Counted from the whole stretch's first letter, positions 1,295-59,400 are shown. The stretch: DNA of 62,900 nt, filler included, from Bonamia ostreae (GCA_040357525.1; 49 parts of 49 records of this genome joined end to end with filler, not necessarily neighbours in it), one strand, 5' to 3'. Translations and numbers: made by a program. The notes: generated by a model from the sequence alone, not told the origin.

Positions 1295-2488
1295 GGTATC
1301 TTTGTCTCCTGACAATTCGTATTCGTTGTCACAAATCACCTTTATCGTCTTCCCTTGTCTGTGCCCCGATTCGCCAACGACGTTTGAATTTGGTATTGTG
1401 ACAGTACTGCACTTCTCTGAAAGTTAAAGTGGTTACCATGTACACAAAGCAATGTCGGTTTCCAAACAGCGACCAGATTTTCCTTGTCGAATTCACAGTG
1501 CACTGTTCTCGTCTCCTCTTCCAAAACAAATCCAATTTCACAGCCGATAGTGAGACTATCGTTTATTTCGACTCTATTCGGCGTTGTTGTGAATCCGTTT
1601 GAAATTTGGAAAACAGGACATTTTTCTATTTTTTGAAATTTTTTCGATTTCAGAAAAAACTTTTTTGGCAAATGATGCGTCGATTCCAGGTAGCTGCTTT
1701 TGATATTTGGTTGTATATGCACTTTATTGGTGCGTCGACGGATGGTTCATAAATATCGTCACATTTAACGTGCACCGATTCCCCTATTCGCACGTTTTGG
1801 AGATCCGTGCTATCTGAATTCGGAACGAACAACGGTGCACATTTTTCTTATTTACAAAAATTGAAACCAAAAAATAGCTAAATTTTTTAAACGATTGAGT
1901 CGTCGATTTTCCAATTTAATTTAAAAAAAATTTAATTTCAATAAAAATTACAAAAATTTTCGCGCAAAAATTTTATTAGAAACGTGACGACTCATAAAAA
2001 GTGTAACAATTATAATAAAACAAAAATTTAGTAAAAAAATTTCGCACAAAAATAAAAAGTTACAATTTCAAGTATAAAAAGGTTTTAACAAAATTACAAA
2101 AAATAAAAACTTTTTACACAAAGAGGCGACTGACTCCATTTAGCACTGTTCGTTTCGACGTCATATAAACAATTTAAAGTTTTCGGTCCATCTCCAAATT
2201 CAAATTGTTCGTCACATCTCACATTTATCTTATTCTCGATCTCAATTCCCGTTGTTCCAATAACGTTCGAGTTCGGTATTGTGATGGATTCACAAGTCAC
2301 TTTTCATTTTAAGTCAAAACTTTTTTGGCAATAAAAAGATTTTGTCCATTTCGGTCGTTGCTGATTTTGGTCGTATTCACATTTGATGTTTGCGTCGCCA
2401 ATCGCGACGTAGTACAAATTGCATTCCGGGTTGATAACAGTGCCAATTGGCCATTCGAGAATGTCGTCAATGTTACTGTTTGTTATCT
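1295..2488 (-). CDS. Tandem Sushi/CCP-like module protein, partial at both ends, >=5 modules (protist-type contig)
   Basis: Exons 2488-2321, 2299-2111, 1846-1661, 1625-1437, 1416-1295 joined by GT-AG phase-1 introns of 21, 264, 35 and 20 nt. Each complete exon gives ~62 aa with C..I.NS..C...Y/F...C...W....C, e.g. TCESITIPNSN...VRCDEQFEFGDGPKTLNCLYDVETNSAKWSQSPLC. Confidence 0.8.
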
Positions 2489-2927
2489 NNNNNNNNNNNN
2501 NNNNNNNNNNNNNNNNNNNNNNNNNNNNNNNNTTAATTAATTAANNNNNNNNNNNNNNNNNNNNNNNNNNNNNNNNNNNNNNNNNNNNAACATTTTTAAC
2601 TCCTGTATCACTATCATTCCAATTCTTTTCAGATTAGATCTGATGGATCTTTGAATCAAGGGTGACATGAATTGTACAATTCAGGATTCTTGCAAACCTT
2701 TGGTCTTAAGGGCGGCGTAAAACGGTTAGCTTAGATATTGAGAGTGCTACTTTTAACTAATAAGATGACAGATAAGGTCAGTGGATCTATTGTTTTAATT
2801 TTGGATATTGTATTTATAATTTATTTTCTATCATTTCTATTTCCCAATCTAATTCAAATTAGCGGGTATGAGTCCGTTAATTAGATTGTATTCACGACTC
2901 CGAGTGTAATACACTTTCTTACAAATG

Positions 2928-3690
2928 TACCTCTAAAAGGGTCATAAGCCGATGAAAGTCTTCGTTTTTTATATGACGCCTTCAAGTCTCTTTAATGGGG
3001 TATCTGCATTTCTCATGACTTCTTGAGCTGACTGGACCCTTTCATCTGTCAATCCGTCTGCTGTGAAATGTATTTATGAATAAGAAAACGTGTATACTAA
3101 TACTATAATGGTAATATGTACATACTATATATACAAAGAGTCAAAGTTCTAGTATTAGTATTGAACATGAACAATCAATGTTATACATTTCAACTTACCT
3201 CCGAAAAATACAGGTTCAATAATTGCGCCATCTTTGCAAGGAACTATTCTCTTGACAAGTCTTTCATAAACTTGAAATGTCCTGAGTTTTGTTTTCATTA
3301 CAATCCGTTAATCCTAGTGGAAACTTTTAGAAAAAATAAAGATAAATATTCATTTTAATTGCAAATTACAGGGAGTAAGGGAAAATGCTGATGTCCCCAG
3401 ATAGCAACTGTGTAAAAATATGAAAGGCCTATCATTATCCATTCAAATGGTATGGGCAATGTTTGTCATAGACAAACAGATAGGACAATCAACTATATGC
3501 TCCCGAATCTTTAAAGAAATCAATGGCTTATGTATGCTTTCTACATTGATACATGTTAAACTTGTGTCCCAAAGATTCTTTATACCAAATTTGAAAAATG
3601 GGAATGGTAGTTATCAAGAAATTAGTAAAATTCAATTGTTCAGGCATGACAGATGATTGACGATGCATTGATGACGGATGCTGAAATAAA
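2928..3690 (-). pseudogene. Degenerate multi-exon DUF6589-like (transposase-associated) sequence, animal-type contig
   Basis: Pieces read FPLGLTDCNENKTQDI...VPCKDGAIIEPVFFG and DGLTDERVQSAQEVMRNADTPLKRLEGVI...EDFH, resembling the GDQLT.ER...AQ..R.N..TP..RLEG...EDWH pattern; internal stops and frameshifts present. Confidence 0.5.
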
Positions 3691-3882: not shown

Positions 3883-4437
3883 ACCAAAATTCGAAAAAAT
3901 GTAAAAAAGAAATGTTCCAAAAACTCCCACGAACAATTCGCGAAACTGCGCGACGGCGACCAAGTCGATTGGGCAAACTCCCAATCCGGCGGACACGTCT
4001 TAACGACTGGCAACATCTACAAAAAAGGCATTTTCCGATTCCGAAAGAGACCGATGAACACATTTATCTCTCCGATCACCGCTGTCGGCGACTGCTACGC
4101 TTTCCAGCCGTCGAATGGCTACGTCGTCCTCGGAATGCGTTCCCCAATATTCCCAACTACTTTTGTCTACGAGTCGGTCAACGCGGACGCGAACCCGTCG
4201 AGCGGTTCGATGCCGAAGACGGTAAAAGTCTCCGCTGTTGACGAGAATGAGCGTTTGGTCGATTTGTCGCCGGACGGAAATGCGTTTGCTTTGAAGGAAA
4301 GTGAGATTAGACAAAGTTTCGAGTTGAAAAGAATGGAGAAAGCGGTGAAGCGGATTCGAGTCGACTTTGTGGAGAATAACGGGAATAAAGATTTTACGTG
4401 TGTCTACAGAATCCGTGTTTTCGGGGAGAGAAAATGA
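3883..4437 (+). CDS. SUN (Sad1/UNC-84) domain protein, C-terminal part (protist-type contig)
   Basis: Open frame from the contig edge: VDWANSQSGGHV, GDCYAF, SSGSMPKTVKV, and the terminal SUN signature RIRVDFVENNGNKDFTCVYRIRVFG; stop at 4437. Confidence 0.9.
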   Translation, partial: TKIRKNVKKKCSKNSHEQFAKLRDGDQVDWANSQSGGHVLTTGNIYKKGIFRFRKRPMNTFISPITAVGDCYAFQPSNGYVVLGMRSPIFPTTFVYESVNADANPSSGSMPKTVKVSAVDENERLVDLSPDGNAFALKESEIRQSFELKRMEKAVKRIRVDFVENNGNKDFTCVYRIRVFGERK

Positions 4438-4439
4438 AT

Positions 4440-5076
4440 GTTGTTTTGCGCCATTTTTTGTTGTTGTTTTAAAATACGGTTTTGTCGCTGCGACATTTTT
4501 TGTTGTCGTTTTTAAAAACGGTTTTGTCGCTACGCCATTTTTTGTTTTTTGGGATATTTTGTTGTCGTTTTTAAAAATGATTTTGTTATTGAGCCATTTT
4601 TTGTTTTTTGCGATTTTTTGTTGTCGTTTTTAAAACGGTTTTGTCGCTACGCCATTTTTTGTTTTTTGTGATTTTTTGTTGTCGTTATTAAAAATGATTT
4701 TATCGCTGCGCCATTTATTGTTTTTGTTTTTTTGTGATTTTTTTGTTGTCGTTTTAAAAAACGGTTTTATCGCTGTGCCATTTATTGTTTTTGTTTTTTT
4801 TGCGATTTTTTTGTTGTCGTTTTTAAAAACGGTTTTGTCGCTGCGCCATTTTTTGGTTTTAATTTTTAAAAACGGTTTTGTCGCTGCGCCATTTTTTGGT
4901 TTTAATTTTTTTGTTGTTGTTTTTAAAAACGGTTTTGTCGCTGCGCCATTTTTTGGTTTATGAGATATTTTGTTGTCGTTTTTAAAAACTGTTTTGTCGC
5001 TGCGACATTTTTGTTTTTTGTGATTTTTTGTTGTCGTTTTAAAAAACGGTTTTGTCGTTACGCCATTTTTGTTTTT
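4440..5076. repeat. Imperfect minisatellite, ~50-65 bp unit, about 11 copies
   Basis: Recurrent ttttgttgtcgtttttaaaaacggttttgtcgctgcgccatttt starting just after the SUN stop codon and running to the contig end. Confidence 0.95.
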
Positions 5077-7817
5077 NNNNNNNNNNNNNNNNNNNNNNNN
5101 NNNNNNNNNNNNNNNNNNNNTTAATTAATTAANNNNNNNNNNNNNNNNNNNNNNNNNNNNNNNNNNNNNNNNNNNNTTTAAGGCAACAGCTGTATCACAG
5201 GGATCTGCTGTCTGGGAAGCTACCATGAAATATCAGATAATAATGGATGGAGTTTCCGGGGGAATCCTACATACCTTTTCAAATAATGAGATGTCAAATC
5301 GATGCTCCAATATTTGGTAAAATGAACTAGGTTAACTTACCTACATGTTGAACAATACAAAAAAATATTATCAATAATTTTCCCATTGTGGATATATTGA
5401 TATATACAAGCAAAACACGTAGTCTTTATCACTTCAGATATTCGATGTTGCTAAACGTAAATATAGGGATGTATACAAAACATAGGGAGCCCAAACCCTT
5501 TATAATTCATTTATATACTACCTATTCGGGTCACGTGGCTAGAAAATTTACAAAAATCCCCTCAAAAGTTTCCATGTGGCTGATTGTGATATTTAAAGTG
5601 TCCAAATTTTAGTATCTGGTGTTTTATTTTTAGTTGAATAGACTGGATACAATACAACGATAGACATTGTCTCTTTAACATTGGTAATGTATGAACATGC
5701 ATTTCATTTCAAATGATTTGCAATTTGTTTATTATGTTTTTTAACACTGCCACTTAGATCCACTATTGCTGATACATGCATGTCCAACCGTTTGCTGTCT
5801 TTAAGCCAATGGATTTCTAAAGTGATTTGACTTCCTTGTCTATAGACGGTATTGATGAATAACTCAATGTAGTTGTTTTTAAAGATAATATATCTATAAA
5901 AAAATTAATTAACATTGTACAAGTAAACGTTGTCCGTCTTAGTATATGCATGTATGAACTCGCCAACTGCATATTCTATTGCACACCAAATTCTGAAGCA
6001 ATGGGACGTATCAACATGTTACATACCTTATTTGATCTGATCTTCAGCTGGGGATTTATACTTCCAGGGAAATGTGTTTGAAATAATATCTAAAAGTTCT
6101 TGAAAAAATGTCTAACATTTATTTTAATATAAAGGACTTTGTTTTGGATGTTTAGAAAAGGACATTTGAGTAGTCAGTGCAAGAAGAAACTGAAATACCC
6201 TGTATGTTCACAACTACGCCTTACTATAATGTAAAATGAAAATCAAGTGGTCGGTAAAGAACACAAACCTTCAACATTTGCTACACAAAATAGAGTCTCA
6301 TCAACGTCTTTACAAGTTAAGGGTTACTGATTCGTTACATCGCATTAACCCTTGATATCAGTCACCATTNNNNNNNNNNNNNNNNNNNNNNNNNNNNNNN
6401 NNNNNNNNNNNNNTTAATTAATTAANNNNNNNNNNNNNNNNNNNNNNNNNNNNNNNNNNNNNNNNNNNNTAGCTGCCCAAAAATGCGATATAAAGAAAAT
6501 TTTGGCCCAGCAAAAATTTTAAAAAGTAGCTCTTTCGAATAGTTCATTTTAACAAATTTAAAAGCTCAATTAAACAAGAATGGCTAAATTTGGCCGAACA
6601 AAAAAAATTTTTTTCCGATCAAAATAACCAAAAAGAAATAAGAGAATCGATTTTCTTTAAAAGTATCGAAATAAATTATGATTTTCTGTACAAAGACGGA
6701 AAAGACATTTTTGTTTTGACAAAAAATCGATTTTGTTCAATTTCCGAACATTTTAAAGCTGAAAAAGATAATTGGAAATTTAGTTTTGCGAAGGGCATTT
6801 TTGCAGCGTGGCTGTCTGTGTGTTGTGGTTTGTTCGGTGTTGATTTTATGAAAAAATTTATTTGGTTTCATGACGATTCGAGTGAATAATCAAAATTTTG
6901 TAAAAACAAAATTTCCATTTTTTTTTTATCAAAATTCGCAATTTCAGAACTTAAAAATAAAAAATTTTACTTGATGTAAAATAATTTTTGCTTCTATTTT
7001 TTGTGATTCAAAAGTTAAATCATTTTTGCCAATACGACCAAAAAATTTCAGTTTTTACATTTTAACAATTTNNNNNNNNNNATTTCAAAATCGCTTTTAC
7101 AAACAAAATTTCTTTTTTTGCTGTTTAACAATCTCAAAAATTGGTTTAACTAAACAAAATATTAAAATCGAAAAAATTGTTTTTTGGTCGAAAAAATTGT
7201 TTTCAATTTTTTAATAGAAACAACAAAATATTTTTTGCAGATTTACCATCAAAATGGTTAATTTTTGCAGTTTATTTAAATGGAATGGTTGATTTTAACA
7301 GTTTATCCAGATAAACTTTTAGCACTGACAAAATTTCAGCAATTAATTTTTTTAAAAATTGGTAAATTATTAAAATGGGAAAAGACAAATCCATTTATCA
7401 ATATTTAGTTCCCTCGAAACTGTTATAAAAGACGATTCTTTTTCTGATAGAGCAGATTTTGACTAATATTTCCAAAAATATTAAAAGATTTGTTGCTGTT
7501 AACAAAACGATCAGGCTCAGAATTAAAATTTCTTCCATTTTAAAAACTATCAAATTTGTTTTCCAATAATTTTTAAAACTATCAAAATTTTCGTTTGTTC
7601 AATATCAAAAATAGATTTTTCGTTTTTGTAACATTTCATTATTTTTGCAATTGTTTTAATTGNNNNNNNNNNNNNNNNNNNNNNNNNNNNNNNNNNNNNN
7701 NNNNNNTTAATTAATTAANNNNNNNNNNNNNNNNNNNNNNNNNNNNNNNNNNNNNNNNNNNNTCATTTGACAATGACAGAAAAATACACACACACTTCAT
7801 ATTTAAAATAAGAACAT

Positions 7818-8333
7818 ATGGAAAAATACCAGATAGACGCTATTAGAAGCGAAAAGCGTAAATTAATGCATCGACTTATCAAACAGTCGAAGAATGCAGC
7901 AGACGCAGAAGACATATATCAAAACGCAATGTTGAAAATATGTCGATTTGCCGGAAAGAAAGAATTTGCAAGTAAAGATCACTTCCGGGCCTGGATGTTT
8001 CACATTGTGGTAAATGAAGCTATTAACTTCTTCAAGTACAAACAACGTAAATGGGGAAGTATTGACACTAATGTAGATGTCGATATCGAATGTGGTAAAC
8101 GGCTCTCAATTGAGAGTATCGATGAAGAAACATTGCTGCAAATACTGACAGAAACATCCGATACACTTCCGCCAGGTAGAAAGGAGGTGTTTTATATGAC
8201 ATACATTCAAAATTTGAGTGAGGAGGAAATCGCTAATCGAATGTGCATAGCACAGTCCACCGTTAGGACCAGGAACTGGGAATCACGAAAGAAATTTAAG
8301 GAGAACATAAAAAAAGTATCATGGTTAGGATGA
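7818..8333 (+). CDS. Sigma-70 family, ECF-type RNA polymerase sigma factor (bacterial or phage contig)
   Basis: 171-aa intronless ORF; region 2 DAEDIYQNAMLKI...FRAWMFHIVVNEAINFFK; region 4 HTH LPPGRKEVFYMTYIQNLSEEEIANRMCIAQSTVRTR. Confidence 0.9.
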   Translation: MEKYQIDAIRSEKRKLMHRLIKQSKNAADAEDIYQNAMLKICRFAGKKEFASKDHFRAWMFHIVVNEAINFFKYKQRKWGSIDTNVDVDIECGKRLSIESIDEETLLQILTETSDTLPPGRKEVFYMTYIQNLSEEEIANRMCIAQSTVRTRNWESRKKFKENIKKVSWLG

Positions 8334-11640: not shown

Positions 11641-12640
11641 CGATTTTGTACTTTTGCCATTAGAAAACATGCAAAACAAATTGCGACAATTTAGCGCAGT
11701 CGCTTCAATCGACCACATTTCGTTAAAAAATGAAATTTTGTGCCCCTCTTTACACGACAGCAACTTCAGCAGTTTTTAAATCCCAAATTCAAATTTTTTA
11801 AATCAATTTTGTAAATTTTACAAAAAGAGAAAAATTGGAAAAATGTTAGTAAAAGACTCCGCAAAAAATTTAAAAGAGAGTTAAATCTTTCACAAGTTTA
11901 AAAATTTTTGTCACAAATTTCAAAAGTACAAATCCATTAAAACTGCAATGCAAACGAACGGAATATCAATTTTACAAGGACCGCCTGGAACTGGTTAAAT
12001 TTTGCTAAAATTTAGGAAAAACGAAAACTGTGATTTCACTAATAAATTTATTGCACATCGCCGCTTATTCAAAGTTGTTACAATAAAATTTTACCTCTTA
12101 TTCGTCCAAATTTTTGCTAAATTTTAAATTGCTAAAATTTAGATATTACGAATCTTTATTGAATTGGATCAAATCGGAACATTCCGACAACAACAAAAAA
12201 GTAAAACAAAATTTTGGCGGAATAACTAGTCTTCAAAACATCAATTTAAACACGTTCAAACAATTTTTCCAAAATTTGAAAAATTGAAAAAAGCTAAATT
12301 TTGCTATTTTTTAGTATAATAACTGCGGCATGTTCTAAAACAGTACGCGAAAGCGACATTAGAAGAAAGAAGCCGCGTATTCTAGTTTGCGCACCTTCAA
12401 ATTCAGCTGTAGACGAAATCGTATCAAGACTCGCTGTTCAACAAATGTTCGACTTTGAAGAAAAACTTTATACGCCCAGAATGATCAGGTTGAAAATATT
12501 AAAAAGCAAAATTTTATATTTTAGAAATTTGATTTTAAGTTTTAAAAATTTTTTAAATTAATAGAATTGGAAATTCTGCCAAAATTAGAGAAAACGTTCA
12601 TTTTCACCTTTCTTTAAAACAGAATGTCGACGCTTTTTTC
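11641..12640 (+). CDS. Senataxin/Sen1-like SF1 (Upf1-family) helicase, internal fragment (protist-type contig)
   Basis: Removing introns 11896-11926 (31 nt) and 11994-12015 (22 nt) gives LNLSQYKSIKTAMQTNGISILQGPPGTGKTKT (Walker A); motif Ia RILVCAPSNSAVDEIVSRL; MIR|IG across intron 12489-12564. Confidence 0.9.
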
Positions 12641-12654
12641 GCGTATGAACACAG

Positions 12655-12831
12655 TTTTTATAAAAATGTTATTTTGCAATTCTTAAATTTTTATAAAAAT
12701 GATATTTTGCAATTTTTAAATTTTCGATTTTTAAATTTTACATTTTTTATAAAAATGATATTTTGCAATTTTTAAATTTTTATAAAAATGATATTTTGCA
12801 ATTTTTAAATTTTCGATTTTTAAATTTTACA
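12655..12831. repeat. AT-rich tandem repeat (~32-55 bp unit), probably intronic
   Basis: Repeated ttttataaaaatgatattttgcaatttttaaatttt up to the contig end. Confidence 0.85.
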
Positions 12832-12931: not shown

Positions 12932-14058
12932 TTGCTTATTTTTTGAGCGGTAAATTGCACTAACTATTTTTTGTGCTCAAAATCTAAAAAGATATTTACA
13001 AATTTTTTCCAATCAAAATAATAAAAAAAATTGATCAATCTTAATAACTAAGTTATAATGAAAAATTTGAATATTTTTAACGAGTTCTGTCTCATGCTAA
13101 CATCGATTTGTAACAACTGTCAAATCAATCTTATGGTAAAACTGCCAAACTACCAAGATTGGATCAACAATATCGCAAAATTCACTGCTACTGCATTTAA
13201 CATTCACAACGTTTTCTTTGTCTCACTATAAAAAAATTTGCTCCAAATATCTAAAACGATAAATAAAAATTTAGGCGTCTACAAATGGAATCCATTATTT
13301 ATTGATGCTTTGGTCAAAATTCTCTTCTTCAATAATATACTTTAGAAACAAAACACCGGAATTTCTGAGAGATTTTGTTCCGCAAATCACAATCGAGTTC
13401 ATGAACGCAAATCTCTCTCATCTCGCAAATCAAATAAAAGAAAACACTGATTTTGACTGTGATAAATTAGACAATCAATAAAACAATTAATTTTAAAACT
13501 TTGAAATATTAAATTTAGATATAAATCAACCAAAACTTTAATCAGAATTTTTATCAAACAAAATTGTTTTAACAAAAAAAGCCCTTTTAAACGAAGTAGA
13601 AATGACATCAATTTTCCAATTTCTGCCATCACTTTTCCATTCAGATTACGAAAACTCAATAAACTGGGTCAAAAAGAAGTTTGACGGCCATTTCGCGCAA
13701 TTGCAATCTGTTTTGAACGGCTCCGTTCGGCCAAACTCAACCAACAACAATCAATTGCAAATTATCGAAGTCGAAATGGCTTGGATTGTCTACGTCGTCG
13801 CCGCCATTATTTCCGGAGATGTCGCTTTCACGGTCACTCAGTCGAAAAACAAAAAATTGGATGCTGCGATTTCTTCTCTGCCATTAAAAATTGTTCCTTA
13901 TACGATTCTGCGATCGAAGAATATGTTTGAAAATGGTCTGGAGGCAACGCCGTTGTTAGAGAGGGCGTTGCTATGTTTTTTCAAGAATTTTCAGAAAAGT
14001 CATATTCAGATTTACATCTATAAGCCAATTTTGGATCCGGTTGATAAGGATCTTGACG
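12932..14058 (+). CDS. XPO7: Exportin-7 / RanBP16-17 family, internal fragment (protist-type contig)
   Basis: Spliced frame: IFNEFCLML...LMVKLPNYQDWINNIAKFT, GIHYLLMLWSK, EVEMAWIVYVVAAIISG, LERALLCFFKNFQKSHI; these track exportin-7 motifs (HEFCRLL, VHYLLSLW, LTWLVYIIGAVIGG, LELA.L.FF..FRK.YI). Confidence 0.85.
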
Positions 14059-14579
14059 TTATTAATCAATCTTTTGTTATTGCGACCAACTTTTGATTTT
14101 TTTTGTCAAATTTGTTATTAATNNNNNNNNNNNNNNNNNNNNNNNNNNNNNNNNNNNNNNNNNNNNTTAATTAATTAANNNNNNNNNNNNNNNNNNNNNN
14201 NNNNNNNNNNNNNNNNNNNNNNGAATTATGTCTGTGATAGTCAGTGGAGACAAACTTTATGTTAAATGGAACTGTGTTCCACATGGTTAATATAATAATT
14301 GACTAAAATATTGTTTTTTCTTCTTCCAGGAATGACATGAAGTTAAATGGTTACAATCAAAGCAAATTTGAAAAAAAAGTATGTTTTCTCTCTCTTTATA
14401 TATCCACTGCTGAAGTTCAATTTTACAGCTGTCATATTTAGATTCTTAGTGATGGGAGAATTTGGGTCTTTAATATCTAATCATTTTATAATATAGCTGA
14501 TGAAACAGTGACATTAAAATGGCATCGGCGATGAGGATGGAAGAAGACATGGATGTAGATGTACCTACAGGTGATTTCA

Positions 14580-15182
14580 GGACAGATATCAGAATGGATA
14601 TTAGAGATATCAACAAATAACGGAACAGACATCAGAACAGATATTAGAGATATCAGAACAAATATAAGAACATATATCAAAACAGATATCAGAACGTATA
14701 TTAGAGATATCAACAAATATTGGAACATACATCGGAACAGATATTAGAGATATCAGAACAGATATTAGAGATATAAGAACATATATCAGAACGTATATTA
14801 GAGATATCAACAAATATCGGAACATACATTGAAAGAGATATTGGAATGGATATTAGATATATCAGAACAGATATCGGATCAGATATTAGAAATCAGAACA
14901 TATATTAGATATCAGAACAGAGATTAGAACAGATATCAGGATAGATATCAAACATATAACAGAACAGTTATTAGAACCTATTTGATATTAGAATGGATAT
15001 CAGAACAGATATTAGAACATTTGATATTAGAATGGATATCAGAACAGATATTTAAGAACATATATTAGATATTGGAACAGATAATAGAACAGATATTAGA
15101 ACAGATATTAGATTATTTATCAGAACAGATGTAAGAACATATATTAGATATAAAAACTTATATTAGATATCAGAACAGATTA
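14580..15182. repeat. Degenerate ~12-bp tandem repeat (gatattagaaca / gatatcagaaca)
   Basis: About 600 bp of visibly repeated short units; explains the low-complexity ORFs on both strands. Confidence 0.9.
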
Positions 15183-24360: not shown

Positions 24361-24648
24361 TTCTCTAGTGGTATGATAGTAACGTGTATGGTCACTTTCT
24401 AAATCGAGGCAGCCAACTAACAAACAAGTTGTTGTNNNNNNNNNNNNNNNNNNNNNNNNNNNNNNNNNNNNNNNNNNNNTTAATTAATTAANNNNNNNNN
24501 NNNNNNNNNNNNNNNNNNNNNNNNNNNNNNNNNNNTTTTTTTTTACTTGTTTTTTATGTCATTTTTTTAATTTAATCGATTAAAAAGTACATTTAAAATT
24601 CTGCAAAATTGTTTTAGAAAAAACGTTTTTATTAACGTTTCCAAAAAC

Positions 24649-36009: not shown

Positions 36010-36311
36010 NNNNNNNNNNNNNNNNNNNNNNNNNNNNNNNNNNNNNNNNNNNNTTAATTAATTAANNNNNNNNNNNNNNNNNNNNNNNNNNNNNNNNNNN
36101 NNNNNNNNNTTATTTTTTTGTCGTTTTTCATCAAATTTTATTTTATTTTTGGTCGTTTTTTTATCAAATTTTATTTTTTTTGTCGTTTTTTATCAAATTT
36201 TATTTTTTTTAGTTTATTATATCAAATTTTATTTTCTCGTTTTTTTTAATTTATGTTATTTAATCAAAATTTTATAATTTGTAAATCAAACTTAATAAAT
36301 GTATAAACCAG

Positions 36312-39961: not shown

Positions 39962-40836
39962 AAGATACAAAGACATTCACATCAATCAACCAAGTTTCGA
40001 AGAAGAGATGTGCGTAGTCGAAAACGTCACACCTCACGGTTACAATTTTAAAATCCGGCAGAATGCAGACTAAGAGACACGACATATTCGAGTTCGATCG
40101 TCGTCGACGTGGAATATGTCCGGAACACGACGATTGTCCACAAAAACAATATTGTTGTATAAAGACATAAACAGAAAATCGGCAACATTCCGATGATGCT
40201 CAAAAGCGACAAATGCATTTTAGCGGACAAGACGGAAGAGGAACTATCTTATTTGGAGGAATGCCCCCACGATCCAGGCGGCTATTTTATAGTCAACGGC
40301 ACCGAACGCGTCATTTTGATACAAGAGCAAGTCTTCAAAAACCGCATTTTGGTCGAAAGGAACAAAGACAAAAACATTTCTGCGTCAGTGACAAGTTCCA
40401 CGGAAGCCAGCAAAAGTCGAACGGAAGTTTATTTGAAGAACGAAAGAATGTTTGTCAGGGCAAACAAGTTCACCGAGGACATTCCGGCCGTTGTTCTCTT
40501 AAAAGTTTATAGATTTTTTTTGCATTTTGTAAATTCGGTTAAACGCTAAAATTGAAATTCGGTTTTTTTTTATAAAGGCGATGGGCTTGGAGAGTGACCA
40601 AGAAGTGGTTCATATAGTGGGTTTGGATTATTTAGCAGTGCTATCGCAATCGATTGAACAATGTCGGTCGCTTGGAATAGACACGGCGGAACAAGCACTG
40701 CAATATATCGGGAATAGGATTCGCTATACGAAAGCGTCGAAGAGCAACAGGACTAAAACGGAAGAAGCGAGATTTATTTTGATAAGTGTTGTTTTGTCGC
40801 ACATTCCATCGGAAAATTTTGATTTTTATGAAAAAG
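39962..40836 (+). CDS. POLR3B: RNA polymerase III second-largest subunit (RPC2), 5' region fragment (protist-type contig)
   Basis: TPH|ECRLRDTTYS across 23-nt intron 40039-40061; ECPHDPGGYFIVNGTERVILIQEQ..KNRILVE; ASVTSST..KSRT; EDIP...LK|AMGLESDQEVV, which are RPC2-type rather than RPB2-type. Confidence 0.93.
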
Positions 40837-41262
40837 GTCTTTTTACGATTTAAATACAAAAAAAAATTGTTGTTTAACTACAAAAAATCGCAAAAATAAA
40901 AATAAAAAATATAAAAATAAAAAATCAAAAAATCGCCAAAAATAAAATAAAAATTAGAAAATTTAAAAAAAAAACGAAAAAATATAAAAAAAATCGCAAA
41001 AAAATAAAAAAAACACAAAAATATAAAAAACAAACAAAAATAAATATCAAAAATCGAAAAAAAATACAAAATAAAAATAACAAAAATCCAATATTATAAA
41101 ATTTTTACAATTATAAAATCTTTATAATAAAATTTATTACAAAAGNNNNNNNNNNNNNNNNNNNNNNNNNNNNNNNNNNNNNNNNNNNNTTAATTAATTA
41201 ANNNNNNNNNNNNNNNNNNNNNNNNNNNNNNNNNNNNNNNNNNNNTTTTAATAAAATTTCAA

Positions 41263-43849: not shown

Positions 43850-44625
43850 AAAGCTCAAAATAAAGCCACAAATTGGATAAAACTTTTGGCAATCTCGTTC
43901 CCGTGAACTTTACGTTTTCGCTGTTAATTTTGTCGACGACATTTTTAACCGCCAAATTTGAAATTTTCTTCGTTTTCTCTTTATCCAAAACCAATTTTTT
44001 GATCACGTGATCAAAATTTTCAATCGCTCTCATTTCGATCTTATTCGGATTCTTTTTATTGGAAACGAGTTTGTGATATGCAAACTTGCAATGTTATTAT
44101 ATCTTCTTTCCTAAATTTAGTGCCATCCAAAACGTCTTCCCAAAATTTCGGCTTTATGTTAAGCTTTTAAATTTATGATGTTTTTGTAATTGCGACATAA
44201 AGCAAAACTTTTTCCACGGCTTCATGCGAGAAAACATTGCCGCTTGTTTTAATTGCGACGATATAACTATTGTCGTTGAAAACCCGAAAAGTTAATGGAC
44301 AATGCAACTTTCCTTTTTCGTTTTTACTGAAATTCAGTTTGATCAAATCCTTCTTTTTTAAGGATTTCCCGGTCACCGGACATTTCCCGAACTTGTCGAT
44401 ATATTCTCTAATATTCGTTTTGTCAAAGACATTGCCGTCTGTTGTGCAAACAGGGCTTTTGAATGGCAACAAAGAAATGGAGCAACAGTCGAACGATAAT
44501 GGCAGAACACGCGGAACGCGTTTTTCTTTGAAACCGCCAAAATCGCGACGCCATTCTGTCGAAGTTATGTGCCTTTTTTTAACGTGTTAAAACATTCTGT
44601 CTTGTTGATGCTGGTTTTTCCCCAT
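43850..44625 (-). CDS. PPIL2: PPIL2/CYP60 U-box cyclophilin-like splicing factor, 5' part (protist-type contig)
   Basis: MGKNQHQQDRM|HITSTEW (21-nt intron 44573-44593), LSFDCCSISLLPFKSPVCTTDG, CPVTGKSL...DLIKLNF, HCPLTFRVF, IVAIKTSGNVFS.EAVE, EDIITLQ. Confidence 0.92.
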
Positions 44626-45095: not shown

Positions 45096-45321
45096 CAACA
45101 AAAACAAAGCTGTTGTCCGTTACATGTTTTTTAGCCCGCTCGACATAAAATGGTTTTCCAATATTGAACTCCACTCGAAATCCGGTCTAATTGGCAACAT
45201 CAAAGAATCTGTTGGAACACATGGAAATATGAAATGCCTATTTTCGGACTTTGTTAAAAGCAATGATATTATATGTATGCCGCTTTACAAACAAGTCTAT
45301 CCTCCGCTTACAAATAAATGA
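45096..45321 (+). CDS. TSR1: Pre-40S biogenesis factor TSR1, C-terminus (protist-type contig)
   Basis: AVVRYMFFSPLDIKWF..IELHSKSGLIGNIKESVGTHGNMKCLF...ICMPLYKQVYP; stop at 45321. Confidence 0.92.
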
Positions 45322-45347: not shown

Positions 45348-46200
45348 TTATTTGTTGTTCAGCAAACTAACACACAAATGACCATTTCTCATCGAATAAA
45401 CATAAATCAATTTTTTGTTGTTGCTTCTTTTGAACAAAACTCGGCTAATCATATTCGTCTGATATATCCCCTTTTTCTGGTTCCTCGCGAAATTTAGACT
45501 ATTTGCGAAAATTATTTTGCAAAACCTGAACATTTTTTCGTACTGTTTTATCTTTATCGAAATATATTTTTTCGGCTTTGTTATCGAAGGAAACGGCCCT
45601 GAAATCGATATTTTTTTCGGTCCCGCTGGAATTTTCGAACACGGGATGTCACCATTTTCAAAATAAACGACATCCGCGATTCTGACACTGTTGTCACAAA
45701 TCTTGTTATCTTTAAATGCGTCTAGTCCCAACCCGTTCAAATATACAAAACCAATGCTAAATTTTAAAATTGTCAAAAATTGCAAATTTTTTGGATGAAA
45801 AACTTATTTGAGTAAACTAGAAAATATTCATATTTCAATTTTGTTTCAGCAAATTCTGTGAAACTAAATTTGGCAAAATCGAAGGAAACGCTAAATTTTA
45901 ATTTTTGATAACATTGTCGATTCCAAATTTTTGAATCGATTTTGTGTAAAAAATTTGCTTTGTTTTGAAGTCTCTAAATCTATTAGACGAAGTCCCGGAG
46001 GAAAATTGCATTCGGCTAATTTTAAAATTGGGTTAAAAGAGGAATTTTGGATCAAAAGTTTTTTATCAAAAACCGCCGGTGGCCATTATTTTGTCGGTTC
46101 CATCGGGAACCCATTTTGCGGAATGAACGTTGTTTGTGTATTTATAAACATAAATTGGATGATCTGGTGATCTAATGTCCCAAACTTTTATTACCGCATC
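45348..46200 (-). CDS. WD40-repeat protein, 3' part, convergent with TSR1 (protist-type contig)
   Basis: DAVIKVWDIRSPDHP...VHSAKWVPDG..IMATGGFDKKL; a 22-nt intron (gttatcaaaaattaaaatttag) and a second short intron join it to the 45348-45785 ORF. Confidence 0.7.
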
Positions 46201-48840: not shown

Positions 48841-48940
48841 NNNNNNNNNNNNNNNNNNNNNNNNNNNNNNNNNNNNNNNNNNNNTTAATTAATTAANNNN
48901 NNNNNNNNNNNNNNNNNNNNNNNNNNNNNNNNNNNNNNNN

Positions 48941-50035
48941 GCTTTTGTGTTGATGACAGTGACATTGGGCAAGCCCAGTTCCTTCACCCTTTTAGCTGAA
49001 AATTAGTGCGGAAACCAAGCACATGGCACCTCGAGAAATTGCTGTCGACCGCAACGACAAAGCCATTTTGATCAAAAACGTTCGAAATTTTCTTCATTTT
49101 TTCGACTATTTGGCATGTTTTGGAGCCAGGAGCAGCGCACATGTCAAGTACTTTGTGACTGGGTTCGATGTCCAACGTGATCGGAGGGATCATAGAAACC
49201 TCTTCTTGTCTCACAATGTTGCCGAAGTCGCTTTCTTCAGTTAGCCATTTGTGCATTCGACTGTTTTCCTGTTTGTTATTTTAATGTTAACATCGATTTT
49301 CTTCATTTCTCGTTTCGATATGTTTGTCTTGAATCCAGGCAGAAACGTTTCGAGGCTGTACCATTTTAACGGTTGAAACTAATGTGAAAGTTGTAATTTT
49401 GTTTTTAATGTGAAAATGACAAGTTTTGTTTTTAATGTGAAAATGACTAGTTTTGTTTTTAAATGTGAAAATGACAAGTTTTGATTTTAAAGTGAAAATG
49501 ACCAGTTTTGTTTTTAAAGTGAAAATGACCAGTTTTGTTTTTAAAGTGAAAATGACAAGTTTTGTTTTTAATGTGAAAATGACAAGTTTTGTTTTTAATG
49601 TGAAAATGACCAGTTTTGTTTTTAAATGTGAAAATATCAAAATGGCTTATTTGCTTTTTGATTCACTTTATATTAACTAGACGCAAAAATCAGCCATTTT
49701 ACAAAAATCGGAAGATTAAGAATTTTATGTCGAACAAAAGTCCAAAAGCTCACCTTGTCCCGAATGTTCTGATTGAGTGCCGAAAAACTCTCTATCAGTT
49801 TATTGTTTCCATTAGATTTGCCTGAAAACCAAAAACAAACTGGAAGTTCAGTCTTTAAGCACTTTTTGAGGGCCGCCGCGTCTTCTTCGCTGTACAGAAC
49901 ACCTTGTTTCCTATAATAACGAATGAAGCTATCCAGTTTTTTGTAATATTTCGCATTAAATTCCTCTTCACGAATTAATTTTTTCATTCCTAGTTTCCTT
50001 TTGTCCGCGGAAGATTTGTCTAACAAGTGCGCCAT
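48941..50035 (-). CDS. NSUN2: tRNA (cytosine-5)-methyltransferase NSUN2/Trm4, 5' part (protist-type contig)
   Basis: FIRYYRKQG, LKTELPVCFW, GNIVRQEEVSMIPPITLDIEPSHKVLDMCAAPGSKT, GFVVAVD...RCHVL; introns 49269-49291 (23 nt), 48996-49015 (20 nt) and ~49379-49753. Confidence 0.93.
49385..49635. repeat. 27-bp minisatellite, about 9 copies, inside the long NSUN2 intron
   Basis: Repeated gtgaaaatgac(a/c)agttttgttttta(a). Confidence 0.95.
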
Positions 50036-55337: not shown

Positions 55338-55847
55338 AAAATCGAAAATTGATTTAATAATGTCAAAATTGTCTCTTTTTTTCTTTTTCTTTTTACGCTT
55401 TTTTATAGTTCTTTTGGAAATATCAACCGACTTTTCGTTGACGTAAAATTTTTTATCACAAAAAGTGCACCTTTTCATCTTTAAATATAAAACAAAAACT
55501 TTAACCGAAACAATATCGTCTTTATGCTTCTTTTTGGCCGACAAAATAAAGCTCTTGTCAAATTTTGTAAAATTGACAGGCGAATTAGTGTGTTTTAGAA
55601 CGTTTTTGTTCTTTTTCAAAACGTTAAAGAACAGACCGTCCCCACAACTAAAATTCTCGCCGCAATAGTAACAAAAATCGCAATCGATATCCAAATTTTT
55701 TGAGGAATCGTTGACTTCTCTTAAAAAGTCCCTCAAATCGCAATTTAAATATCGAACATAATCCTTTTCCGCATCGACTGATTTCATAAACCGGCCAATT
55801 CTCTGTTTGTGCTCCATCGCCAACTCCAAGTCTTTCAAACTCGCCAT
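55338..55847 (-). CDS. Small 2xCxxC zinc-ribbon protein with basic tail, possibly RNase P/MRP Rpr2/Rpp21/Snm1 family (protist-type contig)
   Basis: ATG 55847; FCYYCG ... RCTFCD; Lys-rich C-terminus; probable in-frame 21-nt intron 55479-55499. Confidence 0.5.
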
Positions 55848-56007
55848 TAAAAACACGAAAATAGCTTTTCGAATTTTTAGACAAACAGATTTTATTAACC
55901 AAAACACGTACAGTACAAAGCTAATTCCGCAGAAGCGAAAACACTAACCAAAATCCATATACAATTCAAAATTGAAAAATAAAATTTAACGAGGGTTAGA
56001 TTCAACA

Positions 56008-56414
56008 ATGTCCTCAAATCCGACGGTAAACTGCTCTATAATTTAAAGAAAGAAGATCTCAGCCTCCTTTTAAAAGCCGATTGCCACATCGGCGCCAAAA
56101 CGCTCACCAAAAAAATGGCTCCGTACATCTTCAAGAAAGCAACCGACGGGAAATCGCACATAATCGACTTGCACAAGACCTGGCAAAAAATTCACGCCGC
56201 GGCTCTGTTGCTCGTCGCCGTCAAAAACCCGAAAGACATCTGTTTGGTGTCCTCGACCAATTGGGGCAAAAGAAGCATTTTCAAGTTTAGCCAATACGCG
56301 AAAGCTCATTCCATTTCTGGTAGATTCACGCCGGGGACGTTCACAAATCAGATTTGCAAGAGTTTCCGTGAACCAAGCGTGCTCATTGTATGCGATCCTG
56401 AATTGGACAATCAC
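56008..56414 (+). CDS. RPSA: 40S ribosomal protein SA (uS2), 5' part (protist-type contig)
   Basis: MSSNPT|KEDLSLLLKADCHIG (23-nt intron 56026-56048), HIIDLHKTWQKI, SGRFTPGTFTNQ, FREPSVLIVCDP..DNH. Confidence 0.95.
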
Positions 56415-59400
56415 GTTTTTTTTGTTCGGATTTTTTTTAAATTTTAAAATTTATTGTTCGATTTTTTTGTGGCGAGCGACATTATTTTTTTGTTTGGACT
56501 ATTTAAAATTTGTTGNNNNNNNNNNNNNNNNNNNNNNNNNNNNNNNNNNNNNNNNNNNNTTAATTAATTAANNNNNNNNNNNNNNNNNNNNNNNNNNNNN
56601 NNNNNNNNNNNNNNNAATTTTATATCGATCGAAAATTTTAGCAATCATCTTTCCGATTGCACTGAAAATTATCAAACGGAAATGCCTTTGCCGATTTCTC
56701 AGACGACTTGCGGATTTCCAAAAAATATATTAAAAGATTTAGAGCTTATTGAAAATTTTGTATTTTTTGAAAATGATAAATTGTTTTTGGACAAAATTGG
56801 ATTTTGTAAAAACAAAAATTGTTTTGAGCACAAAGGATGGCAATTTTTGTTTGTCAAAGAGTTCGATTTTTGTTTGGCTAAATTGGTTTGAAAAATTTCA
56901 CTTTTTTGCGAAAATTTTGTCGTTATTAATAAAAATTTTTGCGAAATTTTATTCGGCAATAAAAATAAGACTAGAAAAATGCGAAAAATCAAAAACTATT
57001 TAAAGCTGAAAATACGCGTTAAAAGAGATCTCAAAATCATTAATTTGGGTAACAAAAATTTTGACAATTAAAATTTTCATTAAATCAAAACAAAAAAGAT
57101 TCGATGATATCCAAAAATTCGAAAATAGCAAAATTCGATAAAATTGGCGAAAAGAAAAAATCGATTTTGATCAAAATCGAAAACTCGCTAAAATCCTCGC
57201 AACTTTTTAACCATTTGCTAAACCAACTAAATTTGATCAAAACGAACGAAAAGAGCAAAAAAGAACAAAATAACAAAAAAAGAATTTTCAATTCTGAAAA
57301 TTTGACAAAATTTCCAAAACTGACCAAAATTTCAAATTTCTTGCCGCGTTACGAACCAAACGCTTTTTTGCGAAATTCAGTGTGTTTGCCGCCGCCAGTT
57401 TTTCGGGAAAAAGTCTTTTTAATTTTTTCGGAAAAGTGAAATTTGCTTTTCAAAACAATTTTTCACATTTTGATTTTAGGACAAAAAATTAAAGACGACT
57501 GAACGATCGAAGATCAATATTCAACAAACAAACAACTCTTACAAAAAAAGGTTTCGAACCAATATTTATAGAAAAAAATCAAATTTGACAAAATTTTATC
57601 AACAAAAAAATGTTTTTTCGTCGATAATGATTAAACCTCCGAAAATCTTTTCACAAAAAAACAAAAAACAACCAAAAATTGTGCACAAAAAGAGTCAAAA
57701 TTGCCAGCAAACATTGCCCAAAATTAATCAAAAAACAAATCCACCAAAAAAGCAAAATTTGAATGAACAAAACTTTGCAAAATCTAATTCTAANNNNNNN
57801 NNNNNNNNNNNNNNNNNNNNNNNNNNNNNNNNNNNNNTTAATTAATTAANNNNNNNNNNNNNNNNNNNNNNNNNNNNNNNNNNNNNNNNNNNNTATGTAG
57901 ATCGATGCCATCAAATTTAGTTGCTACATGTTCAAATACGATATCTTTCAATTGCATGTAATACACGTGTAGATAATTAATTTGAAATACTTGATTTCTT
58001 TCCTGCTGTATGGTGAGTTTGACATTTAAATGAACATTGAAAATTGCATTACATCTGAGGATTAAACATATTCTTATCATATCTTGAATGAATTTTGTAT
58101 ATCCATGGTTGTTTAGACAAATAGAATATCGTTTTCACGACAGCAAAGGTAAACACTTTTATTCAACTGCATCCAAAACTAAGATGCTTTGATTTAATAT
58201 CGTGAAATGTTGATGCTGTAGATAACTGCTGTTACTATAGTCAAGTCAGACTGTACAGCAATGTAGTAATCAATTTCTAGAATGCAAAAATGTCGATTGA
58301 AATATTTTCAAATTATATCCAACACTACATGTCATTCTGGTAATCTATGCGAGACATACTTTCTAAAGTCAAATATGATAAATCACTATCATTTCGAGAG
58401 AGAAAAAAACCCAACAACGAATAAAGTCTATAGATACGCTCAGTGGCGAGCATAAAACCACGATTCGTACCAAAAATTCTACTCCATTATTTATTTGCAT
58501 ATTTCACACATTTACGGTCACATTTACATGTATGCACACTCATATTGCTTACAACTAAGGCCAGAATTACAACTGATGATGATCTTAGTTCTTCATCTCT
58601 GGCATGCACAGAATTTCAGTAAAAGCATGTAATTCACCGTTTGATCAGGACATTGTTCTTAAAGTGGTTATTATCATAAAATAAGATGGTAAATACTAAA
58701 ACAACGTCGTGGTTTAATTTAATTTCATTCTCTCCTTCTAGAACATACGATAACCAGAACGACGGAACCTTTATTATGTACAGATCAAGAGATGGCAGTG
58801 GAAACATAATGGAGGTACATTCTTGCGCTTTTCGATTTTGACTATTTCCTTAATTACTTCTACACTATTGAACATATTGGACTGAATAAAGAAGTATTTC
58901 GATTAAATTGGATGTCAAATAGGTGCCATTCCGCCAATTTTAACTGTGACAAGATAAAATTTGAGAGTAATTAATCATTTACACGAACATGATGTTTCAT
59001 AAATTAAAACACTGCATTATTCATAAATAGGATTTCGATTGATTTCTTTCACATTCTTTAGCTTCCCTTTNNNNNNNNNNNNNNNNNNNNNNNNNNNNNN
59101 NNNNNNNNNNNNNNTTAATTAATTAANNNNNNNNNNNNNNNNNNNNNNNNNNNNNNNNNNNNNNNNNNNNGGAAAATGTTCTCAAATGATTAATTTATGG
59201 TTATTGAAGAGGATTTGCTGTGAAACATTCTAAAGATCTTGGAAGTAGCATGTTTCATCAAAACTGTAAAAAGAACATTTTTGCCCATAGCAATCAACCA
59301 TAAATTACAATTTAAAGGCTTGCACACCTAGAGGTATGAATGTGAAACATTTCGATTACCTGTAGACACCTATGATATTTTATAAAAAGCGATAACAATC

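Follow-up and report, generated by a model that had tools for sequence, protein, structure and literature searches.

The window analysed here, a stretch of 62,900 nucleotides, is made up of 49 contigs of 1176-1194 bp each (~1.18 kb), which are ordered by falling length and separated by 48 spacers, each of the form N44-TTAATTAATTAA-N44. A preliminary description had flagged 18 of these contigs as a second, compact eukaryotic genome interleaved with animal contigs, and all 18 start coordinates that it gave were true contig starts. A Pfam search, with 86 ORFs of at least 70 aa and 150 of the 221 ORFs of 30-69 aa as input, recognised eukaryotic exons on 11 of the 18 flagged contigs, including those of eIF5B, POLR3B, RPSA, PPIL2, XPO7 and a SUN-domain protein, among others (Table 1). 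With exons recognised on these 11 only, and with long AT-rich tandem repeats detected by TRF on several contigs (e.g. contigs 4, 32 and 39), the near wall-to-wall coding described earlier was overstated.

The results also revealed seven GT-AG introns of 18, 21, 23, 23, 34, 45 and 73 nt (median 23), of which the 34-nt one is tentative. Their removal restored open frames, and the spliced frames of POLR3B, PPIL2 and RPSA ran stop-free for 258, 178 and 128 codons, respectively, which bears out the tiny introns first noticed by eye. In the PDB comparison, the exon order was collinear with RPC2 (POLR3B) and with PPIL2. POLR3B matched Pfam Rpb2_1 and Rpb2_2, and its top PDB matches were the RPC2 chains 5fj8_B and 7a6h_B; PPIL2 matched residues 10-134 of chain 7abi_t (1.4e-34), and the following 26-aa exon had residues 134-159 of the same chain as its sole match, at an E-value of 0.7. 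The eIF5B exon was recognised as Pfam IF-2 (6.7e-16), with tblastn of three homologues giving one HSP of 344-352 aa, while RPSA matched Ribosomal_S2 (7.8e-13). The Sushi matches on contig 2 were marginal (Pfam 20.6 and 22.1 bits, the latter with the cutoff at 20.7) and these ORFs had no match in the PDB search; the CCHC-like knuckles on contig 29 were read from the translation of the 336-aa ORF, for which Pfam gave no match. No rRNA was found in the window by Rfam search, nor a ubiquitin gene by Pfam search of the ORFs; rhizarians carry an insertion at polyubiquitin monomer junctions.

Table 1 Features of the 18 flagged contigs, in positions of the window.
Feature	Position	Strand	Description
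Flagged contig 2	1295..2488	-	Two Sushi/CCP-like repeats, ORFs 1345-1746 and 2097-2303; CpG o/e 1.72
Flagged contig 4	3883..5076	+	C-terminal SUN exon 3883-4434; Pfam Sad1_UNC 1.7e-18
Contig 4 tandem repeat	4495-5076		T-rich, unit ~58 nt; TRF
Flagged contig 6	6470..7662		AT-rich, GC 24%; no gene recognised by Pfam
Flagged contig 10	11641..12831	+	Helicase AAA_11 exon 12298-12558; Pfam 4.2e-10
Contig 10 tandem repeat	12651-12831		AT-rich; TRF
Flagged contig 11	12932..14122	+	Exportin-7-like exon 13542-14093; Pfam TPR_XPO7 1.9e-19
Flagged contig 13	15514..16704		ORFs overlapping on both strands, without Pfam family
Flagged contig 20	24536..25722	-	Single eIF5B exon of at least 350 aa, ORF 24583-25704; GC 49%
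Flagged contig 27	33540-34724		AT-rich; three successive minus-strand ORFs without family
Flagged contig 28	34825-36009		AT-rich; spacer between contigs 27 and 28
Flagged contig 29	36110..37293	+	336-aa ORF 36285-37292: two CCHC-like knuckles, G/N/R-rich tail
Flagged contig 30	37394..38577		GC 23%; no gene recognised by Pfam
Flagged contig 32	39962..41145	+	POLR3B (RPC2) exons 39963-40038, 40062-40156, 40175-40504, 40578-40850
POLR3B intron	40039..40061	+	23 nt, GTTACA...CGGCAG
POLR3B intron	40157..40174	+	18 nt, GTATAA...AAACAG, in-frame TAA inside
POLR3B intron	40505..40577	+	73 nt, GTTTAT...ATAAAG, frame shift +1
Contig 32 repeat	40881-41088		A-rich, 200 nt, 3' of POLR3B exons; TRF
Flagged contig 33	41246..42429	+	Y-family DNA polymerase exon 41546-41926; Pfam IMS 1.9e-8, IMS_HHH 6.8e-6
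Flagged contig 35	43813..44995	-	PPIL2 (U-box) gene, ATG at 44625
PPIL2 intron	44573-44593	-	21 nt
PPIL2 intron	44164-44208	-	45 nt
PPIL2 intron, tentative	44052-44085	-	34 nt
Flagged contig 36	45096..46277	+	C-terminal TSR1/BMS1-type exon 45097-45318; Pfam RIBIOP_C 3.9e-31
Contig 36 convergent ORF	45351-45803	-	151 aa; end 33 nt from TSR1/BMS1-type exon
Flagged contig 39	48941..50121	-	NSUN-type methyltransferase exon 48987-49280; Pfam Methyltr_RsmB-F 4.3e-8
Contig 39 tandem repeat	49397-49635		Unit 27 nt, 8.8 copies; TRF
Flagged contig 44	55338..56515	+	RPSA (uS2): ATG 56008, exon 56049-56414, next donor 56415
RPSA intron	56026-56048	+	23 nt
Contig 44 divergent ORF	55338-55943	-	202 aa
Flagged contig 45	56616..57793		AT-rich, GC 27%; K/N-rich ORFs without family

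In composition, the flagged contigs stand apart as a population of their own. Pooled CpG o/e was 1.69 in the flagged and 0.77 in the unflagged contigs, ranging per contig from 1.03 to 2.19 in the 18 flagged and from 0.42 to 1.08 in the 31 unflagged ones (Mann-Whitney p 9e-9). A/T tracts numbered 9.3 versus 1.8 per kb, and A/T runs of at least 6 numbered 3-25 per flagged and 0-5 per unflagged contig (Mann-Whitney p 2e-8), confirming the A/T-tract-rich, CpG-retaining composition described earlier. Because GpC o/e was likewise high in the flagged contigs (1.34), the juxtaposition of GC-rich exons and AT-rich spacers accounts for some of the CpG excess; the CpG/GpC ratio was still apart (1.26 versus 0.85, p 1.3e-4). 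That CpG is not depleted in these contigs suggests little or no CpG methylation. Binning by k-mer, which had been proposed as a check, returned the flagged list exactly (unsupervised k-means, k=2, trinucleotide frequencies; 49/49 contigs), and the two sets did not overlap on PC1 of the same frequencies. The pooled GC of the 18 contigs was 32.1%, with exons of up to 49%. Judged by composition alone, all 18 would come from one organism. As for the unflagged contigs, the BIR and SRCR exons on them show an animal source, the bivalve of the preliminary description being one candidate. The SINEs ascribed to them could not be confirmed: all-against-all blastn of the 49 contigs gave only one 42-nt match, and there were no tRNA-like and no Rfam matches.

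One flagged contig, contig 4, was looked at across sequencing runs. In the independent run X2 it recurred in two pieces, of 266 and 349 nt, both free of differences, and its unique part (3883-4442) had zero depth in X3 and X6. Zero depth was also obtained in 1.38 Gb of the X20 raw genomic reads, an uncalibrated figure for this one contig without a host-contig control; these reads bear the same species label as the best-matching run. Contig 4 is patchy across runs under one species label, being present in some and absent in others. Such zero depth, even if uncalibrated, speaks against the idea that an unusual part of the host genome, or genes that the host acquired by transfer, gave rise to the flagged contigs, as do the bimodal, non-overlapping composition and an eIF5B identity of at most 53% in collections of ~15 billion proteins (which may lack mollusc sequences). 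With nothing in its favour beyond the sharing of one assembly, a host origin is hardly credible.

The protein comparisons gave a similar picture of distance. Among 1.84 billion cluster representatives, the best relative of the 339-aa eIF5B exon showed 53% identity, and the only identical match was the window's own ORF (P0121, on a contig of 1187 bp). Identity was 50-53% to plants, fungi and rhizarians versus 42-44% to named metazoan representatives (Caenorhabditis, Drosophila), and only 42% to true foraminiferal sequences; named ascetosporean proteins were absent from the matches listed for eIF5B and for P0001, one of its nearest relatives. In the public protein collections that were searched, the source organism thus appears to lack any close relative. 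RPSA was about equidistant from every solved uS2 protein (106-122 bits in PDB), and the chains that we take to be metazoan, as the search output gives no organisms, were not on top. This is in line with the earlier remark that RPSA looks too divergent to be metazoan, but is weak evidence.

We then turned to the phylogeny of eIF5B, in which the query fell with a foraminifera-type clade in all four tree analyses. In FastTree with 156 rows, the query, P0241 and P0001 grouped at 0.855 and this trio joined foraminifera-labelled rows at 0.982; with 188 rows, the corresponding supports were 0.945 and 0.974. IQ-TREE (LG+G4+F, 61 rows) separated the trio, the foraminiferal group and P0290 from all others at 95.4/86. 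Under LG+C20+F+G4 PMSF with a careful search, the trio received 98/85, the trio plus foraminifera 85/47 (47 being SH-aLRT), and a Rhizaria-wide 21-row set including Amorphochlora 53/96 (53 being the bootstrap); a 20-row set, again with Amorphochlora, had a support of 99 in the quick tree. The labels Nonionella, Bolivina, Rosalina and Elphidium denote Foraminifera (EukProt), and the named members of the query's clade are all Foraminifera save one mislabelled row. The nearest relatives, P0241 and P0001, are both short-branched, mislabelled or unplaced, and of uncertain origin. P0001 bears an amphipod label, yet no arthropod or other animal occurred among the named proteins in its best 120 matches, the nearest being P0241 (66%). 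The end branch of the query is long (0.86 versus a median of 0.36), and the PMSF tree kept the query apart from plants and green algae.

The query lay outside a Metazoa clade supported at 100/100, and forcing it with Metazoa cost 35.7 lnL (AU test, p 0.036); placement with a Babesia group (p 0.0496) or with microsporidia (p 0.041) cost 26-30 lnL. These p values of 0.036-0.050 are marginal, the tested groups and the 61-row subsample having been picked after the first trees were seen. The proposed eIF5B phylogeny thus set the query outside Metazoa and beside foraminifera-labelled Rhizaria. Together with composition and introns, this bears out the claim of a second eukaryote interleaved with the animal contigs, and we regard a non-host eukaryotic source for the 18 flagged contigs as almost certain. 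Sushi repeats are mostly an animal domain and dicyemids have very short introns, so the marginal Sushi repeats and the exportin-7 exon could hint at a fast-evolving animal parasite with a compact genome, akin to orthonectids, dicyemids or myxozoans; given the lower eIF5B identity to animals, the Metazoa clade without the query, the AU result and an RPSA search in which chains taken to be animal were not on top, such a source is very unlikely. A non-rhizarian protist parasite, either an alveolate (perkinsid, gregarine or coccidian) or a microsporidian, is also quite unlikely. Microsporidia likewise have tiny introns, the AU rejections of the Babesia and microsporidian placements are marginal, and the trees hold no labelled perkinsid or gregarine sequence; on the other side stand the cost of these placements, the constant company of the foraminifera-type clade, and the mixture model, which returned microsporidia to Fungi but not the query.

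From this one exon of one gene, the second organism is likely to belong to Rhizaria. A non-parasitic rhizarian (foraminifer, gromiid or cercozoan), whether an epibiont of the animal or part of its food, would fit the eIF5B neighbours, which are foraminifera-labelled or from sediment- or gut-type samples, and the presence in one run but not in others suits food or fouling as much as infection. The compact AT-rich genome, the 18-45-nt introns and the long eIF5B branch are, by contrast, in the style of a reduced parasite, and introns average 82-882 bp in the free-living rhizarians compiled in Table 1 of PMC13746701, which makes this alternative unlikely. Ascetosporean genomes span 12-36 Mb with 24-33% GC, and Ascetosporea are sister to Apofilosa and Retaria (available part of PMC11069148); their introns are drastically reduced in number and size (available part of PMC13746701). 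The flagged contigs share these genome traits, with 32.1% GC and introns of 18-73 nt (median 23). It is the rhizarian placement of eIF5B and the genome style together that lead us to an ascetosporean-type parasite. Overall, our best reading attributes the flagged contigs to a parasitic rhizarian, probably an ascetosporean, that was assembled along with an animal host (probability about 0.7); Ascetosporea as the group is by itself somewhat favoured, and the parasitic lifestyle is probable. Thus the ascetosporean guess of the preliminary description fits the foraminiferal side of eIF5B, the GC content and the reduced introns, any order within the group being tentative. According to this reading, nuclear DNA of a second, non-metazoan eukaryote would have been extracted, sequenced and assembled with the animal DNA. 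Its compact AT-rich genome would hold closely packed genes, A/T-tract and tandem-repeat spacers between exons and GT-AG introns mostly of 18-45 nt, and eIF5B would place the organism either within Rhizaria or adjacent to them, alongside foraminifera-type sequences.

Several known systems resemble the flagged contigs to different degrees. The chlorarachniophyte nucleomorph likewise has AT-rich compact DNA and introns of 18-21 nt (available part of PMC10245619), whereas the contigs here show a wider intron range, non-coding repeats of hundreds of bases and an eIF5B apart from plants and green algae. No named clade lies nearer to the query in any tree than foraminiferal eIF5B (Nonionella, Bolivina, Rosalina, Elphidium), but identity to it is only 42%, the query being closer to P0241 and P0001. 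Mikrocytida (Mikrocytos mackini and Paramikrocytos canceri) are, like the proposed organism, Rhizaria that parasitise marine invertebrates; their GC is ~30-34% and their intron lengths lie at the short extreme. However, every intron in them measures 16 or 17 nt and is sequence-conserved, as against 18-73 nt with varied donors here (none of the seven having either length), and their proteins have diverged extremely, as against 53% eIF5B identity to distant eukaryotes (available part of PMC10245619). We tentatively read the organism as a member of Haplosporida or Paramyxida rather than Mikrocytida. The draft genomes of Bonamia ostreae, Marteilia pararefringens and Paramarteilia canceri, none of which appeared among the named matches, resemble it in genome traits, and the available part of their description gives no intron lengths (PMC11069148). 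They share with the flagged contigs a low GC (24-33%), small genes amid much non-coding, partly repetitive DNA, and retained spliceosomal introns (~1-2 per mRNA in the published genomes), and they too were sequenced with invertebrate host DNA and yielded highly fragmented assemblies (PMC11069148).

The window consists of 62,900 bases in 49 contigs of 1176-1194 bp, ordered by falling length and joined by 48 identical spacers (N44-TTAATTAATTAA-N44), with internal N10 gaps in a few contigs; the window is accordingly a section of a fragmented assembly and not one locus. The preliminary description had assigned 18 contigs (hereafter flagged) to a second, compact eukaryote of separate composition, and all 18 of its start coordinates proved to be true contig starts. 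The separate composition was borne out as well. The CpG observed/expected (o/e) ratio per contig was 1.03-2.19 in the flagged set versus 0.42-1.08 in the other 31 (unflagged) contigs, and 1.69 versus 0.77 when pooled (Mann-Whitney p 9e-9); A/T runs of at least 6 numbered 3-25 versus 0-5 per contig, the pooled densities of A/T tracts being 9.3 and 1.8 per kb (p 2e-8), and pooled CpG/GpC was 1.26 versus 0.85 (p 1.3e-4). Label-free k-means clustering (k=2) on trinucleotide frequencies sorted 49 of 49 contigs as originally listed, and the two sets did not overlap on the first principal component of these frequencies. Because the GpC o/e of the flagged set was likewise raised (1.34), the CpG excess comes partly from GC-rich exons beside AT-rich spacers; even so, the flagged set still contrasts with the CpG-depleted one. 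The flagged set has a GC content of 32.1%, its exons being far richer in GC than their spacers, and its non-coding parts consist of tandem arrays, AT-rich and with periods of 20-117 nt, in which most consensus units retain motifs containing CG. Half of one animal-type unflagged contig (contig 12) is also made up of tandem repeats, about 50 copies of a degenerate 12-nt unit.

The gene content of the flagged contigs was examined by a Pfam scan of 86 stop-to-stop ORFs of at least 70 aa and 150 of the 221 ORFs of 30-69 aa, which found families on 11 of the 18 contigs and no recognised gene in the other seven. These families were a SUN domain, an AAA_11 helicase, exportin-7, IF-2 (eIF5B), Rpb2 domains, a Y-family polymerase, a U-box, the Tsr1/Bms1 C-terminus, an RsmB/NSUN methyltransferase, ribosomal S2 and, marginally, two Sushi repeats. 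In PDB searches, the Rpb2 exon was identified as part of RPC2/POLR3B, and the U-box gene proved to be PPIL2 (E 1.4e-34). The eIF5B gene is a single exon of at least 350 aa; all other flagged exons are at most 184 aa. The genes are closely packed, the stop of the TSR1-type gene and a convergent ORF being only 33 nt apart. ORF cover was 0.79 in the flagged versus 0.48 in the unflagged contigs (p 1.3e-4), a measure inflated by A/T-rich low-complexity DNA; for this reason, and because the flagged contigs contain long AT-rich arrays, the earlier statement that they are nearly wall-to-wall coding is overstated. Sushi is mostly an animal domain, and the Sushi/CCP-like ORFs of flagged contig 2, which had no sequence match in the PDB, could belong to a surface protein. 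No Pfam family was found in a 336-aa ORF with two cysteine/histidine knuckles.

Introns were read from the DNA against homologue alignments. Seven GT...AG introns of 18-73 nt were found across POLR3B, PPIL2 and RPSA, and their removal restores stop-free frames of 258, 178 and 128 codons, respectively, which confirms the tiny introns noticed before. Most donors read GTTT or GTAA, and most acceptors AAAG. A 26-aa mini-exon of PPIL2 corresponds to human PPIL2 residues 134-159 and starts exactly at the point where the alignment of the preceding exon ends; the ORF downstream of the tentative third PPIL2 intron had no match in the PDB.

Coordinates of introns, repeats and selected ORFs along the window
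Feature	Position	Strand	Remarks
POLR3B intron	40039-40061		23 nt
POLR3B intron	40157-40174		18 nt
POLR3B intron	40505-40577		73 nt
PPIL2 intron	44573-44593		21 nt
PPIL2 intron	44164-44208		45 nt
PPIL2 intron	44052-44085		34 nt, tentative
RPSA intron	56026-56048		23 nt
Sushi/CCP-like repeats, marginal	1345-1746, 2097-2303	-	flagged contig 2; 20.6 and 22.1 bits, cutoff 20.7
336-aa ORF	36285-37292	+	two CCHC-like cysteine/histidine knuckles, long G/N/R-rich tail
AT-rich tandem array	4495-5076		flagged; Tandem Repeats Finder
AT-rich tandem array	12651-12831		flagged; Tandem Repeats Finder
AT-rich tandem array	36113-36246		flagged; Tandem Repeats Finder
AT-rich tandem array	40881-41088		flagged; Tandem Repeats Finder
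AT-rich tandem array	49397-49635		flagged; Tandem Repeats Finder
Degenerate 12-nt tandem repeat	14573-15148		unflagged contig 12
ECF-type sigma-70 factor, bacterial	7812-8330	+	contig 7 (7763-8955); Sigma70_r2, Sigma70_r4_2

A question raised by these data is whether the flagged DNA could be the host's own. The 339-aa eIF5B exon was searched three ways: twice with a word index against 5.8 billion clusters, at longer and at similar lengths, and once exhaustively with HMMER against 1.84 billion representatives. The sole identical sequence was the window's own ORF (one member, from one contig of 1187 bp); the best match after it reached 53%, and named animal sequences 42-44%. One flagged contig (contig 4, 3883-5076, a SUN-domain exon followed by a T-rich repeat) was also compared with four sequencing runs, without a host-contig depth control, so that absence from a run is uncalibrated. 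Run X2, from a study other than that of the best-matching run, held pieces of 266 and 349 nt of this contig with 0 differences. X3, X6 and the raw genomic reads of X20 (the last bearing the same species label as the best-matching run, with 1.38 Gb, about 6%, read) matched only the T-rich repeat at 4683-4842, in short stretches 90-95% alike; over the unique coding part the depth was zero in X6 and X20 and, except for one small bit at 4443-4482, in X3. Thousands of low-complexity matches in other runs fell on the array at 4683-4842. Runs labelled 'oyster metagenome' or 'mollusc metagenome' had small shares (0.06-0.13) and are not evidence of host or habitat, X6, which lacks contig 4, being among them. 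No RNA run was found among the listed runs matching the window; X1, with a share of 0.76, may be the source sample. Because eIF5B has no close match and contig 4 is patchy among the runs, the evidence says that the flagged DNA is not the host's own.

Next, trees were built from the eIF5B exon and its best matches, with rows aligned over fewer than 280 query residues dropped and labels taken from cluster look-ups. With FastTree, the query grouped with P0241 (a Nonionella-labelled EukProt row) and P0001 (a UniRef row labelled Hirondellea gigas, an amphipod) at 0.855 in 156 rows and 0.945 in 188 rows, and this trio joined the foraminifera-type rows (named ones being Nonionella, Bolivina, Rosalina and Elphidium) at 0.982 and 0.974, respectively. 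In a 61-row subsample, picked after the FastTree trees had been seen, IQ-TREE under LG+G4+F gave 47.9/87 for the trio and 95.4/86 for the trio, foraminifera-type rows and P0290 versus all other rows; the careful analysis (LG+C20+F+G4 PMSF) gave 98/85 for the trio and 85/47 for the trio with the foraminifera-type rows, and under the mixture model the microsporidia rejoined Fungi. The quick tree showed 99 for a 20-row set made up of the query's clade and the chlorarachniophyte Amorphochlora; in the careful tree the wider node with Amorphochlora, which the long row P0352 had joined, received 53/96.

As the preliminary description had anticipated, the query fell outside Metazoa, a clade of 100/100 with Drosophila and Caenorhabditis as its named rows. 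Holding the query with Metazoa lowered lnL by 35.7 (AU p 0.036), with the Babesia group by 30.2 (p 0.0496) and with microsporidia by 26.0 (p 0.041); all three placements are thus rejected, marginally and for groups named after the trees had been seen. RPSA scored 106-122 bits against all solved uS2 proteins, and chains that we take to be fungal, plant, euglenid, Toxoplasma and kinetoplastid ranked above presumably mammalian ones, a ranking that is weakly consistent with a non-animal origin. Overall, eIF5B divergence, trees, run comparison and composition support a second, compact, non-animal eukaryote in the window, which is probably a parasite.

Several labels in these trees deserve a comment. 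The nearest match of P0001 is P0241 (66%), and no arthropod or other animal occurs among the named proteins of its best 120 matches; P0001 is probably from a passenger organism in the amphipod data and not an amphipod gene. Nonionella stella has two quite different eIF5B sequences in EukProt, P0241, which groups with P0001 and the window's protein, and P0186, which groups with Bolivina and Elphidium; either two organisms are present in the transcriptome or these are old paralogues. An eIF5B fragment labelled Piliocolobus tephrosceles, a primate, groups with Babesia bigemina (P0162/P0306, 100/98) and is probably a piroplasm sequence in a primate record.

The 31 unflagged contigs yielded 62 scanned ORFs, of which three carried Pfam families: a BIR exon, an SRCR exon and a bacterial ECF sigma-70 factor. 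The unflagged set is therefore animal, with at least one bacterial contig included. In the ESM Atlas, the BIR exon matched arthropod, mollusc and rotifer clusters, which marks it as 'invertebrate animal' and no finer, and the earlier identification of the host as a bivalve gained no counted support; a 261-aa ORF matched bacterial and plant clusters only, without a common family. For the sigma factor, a scan of one genome per prokaryote species found a single relative, in Nibrella viscosa, with 26% identity; the contig that carries this factor represents a third organism in the window. The SINEs previously reported from the unflagged contigs found no support: all-against-all blastn of the 49 contigs returned one match of 42 nt, ARAGORN no tRNA-like sequence and Rfam no match in the window.

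Such a mixture could arise if the sampled tissue contained parasite cells, or cells associated in some other way, that contributed DNA, short-read assembly then yielding small contigs of both genomes and the length-sorted file interleaving them; the compositional contrast would follow from the biology of the two genomes. CpG depletion is linked to germline CpG methylation in many invertebrates, and the depletion seen in the animal set, and absent from the protist set, may reflect such methylation. Parasite contigs in a host assembly are a known kind of event. Here, in an assembly filed under one organism, 18 of 49 window contigs belong to another eukaryote and one or more to a bacterium, which would contaminate any gene catalogue or population statistics based on the assembly; this is fixable, since the bins are cleanly separable by composition alone. 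The finding is of value for assembly cleaning and for the new genome data that it may bring from a parasite group so far little sampled: a search of the full assembly for this compositional signature could yield ascetosporean genome data, possibly from an unsequenced species, and would let the generality of very short introns in Ascetosporea be tested.

The earlier best guess, an ascetosporean, fits the genome traits and the position of eIF5B beside Retaria-type sequences, with the order unproven. We tentatively suggest, with a probability of roughly 0.35, that the source of the flagged contigs is an ascetosporean or sister endomyxan without a sequenced close relative, infecting the host species in the material of at least two separate studies. 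If so, a large share of a new genome would lie in the remainder of the assembly, for a group with only a few fragmentary drafts, and a non-mikrocytid member would be shown to have introns of about 18-23 nt. Ascetosporeans, which are of economic importance and cannot be grown in culture, are represented by a small number of fragmentary genome drafts (PMC11069148); they are placed sister to Apofilosa and Retaria (PMC11069148). The text of this paper, the relevant one found on haplosporidian intron sizes or nuclear genomes, gives no intron lengths, and four of its supplementary files mention neither introns nor Sushi (PF00084), Exportin or 'initiation factor 5B'. Bonamia and paramyxids keep canonical introns, 1-2 per mRNA (PMC11069148), and Ascetosporea have introns drastically reduced in number and size, the listed free-living rhizarians averaging introns of 82-882 bp (PMC13746701). 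Mikrocytid introns are only 16-17 nt (PMC10245619), whereas none of the seven flagged introns is of that size. Ascetosporean genomes measure 12-36 Mb, with much non-coding DNA and 24-33% GC (PMC11069148), a range that includes the 32.1% of the flagged set. Given this GC content, the repeat-rich spacers, the tiny and variable introns, the long eIF5B branch and its Retaria-type neighbours, the flagged set fits a non-mikrocytid ascetosporean, a class membership that we infer from these traits.
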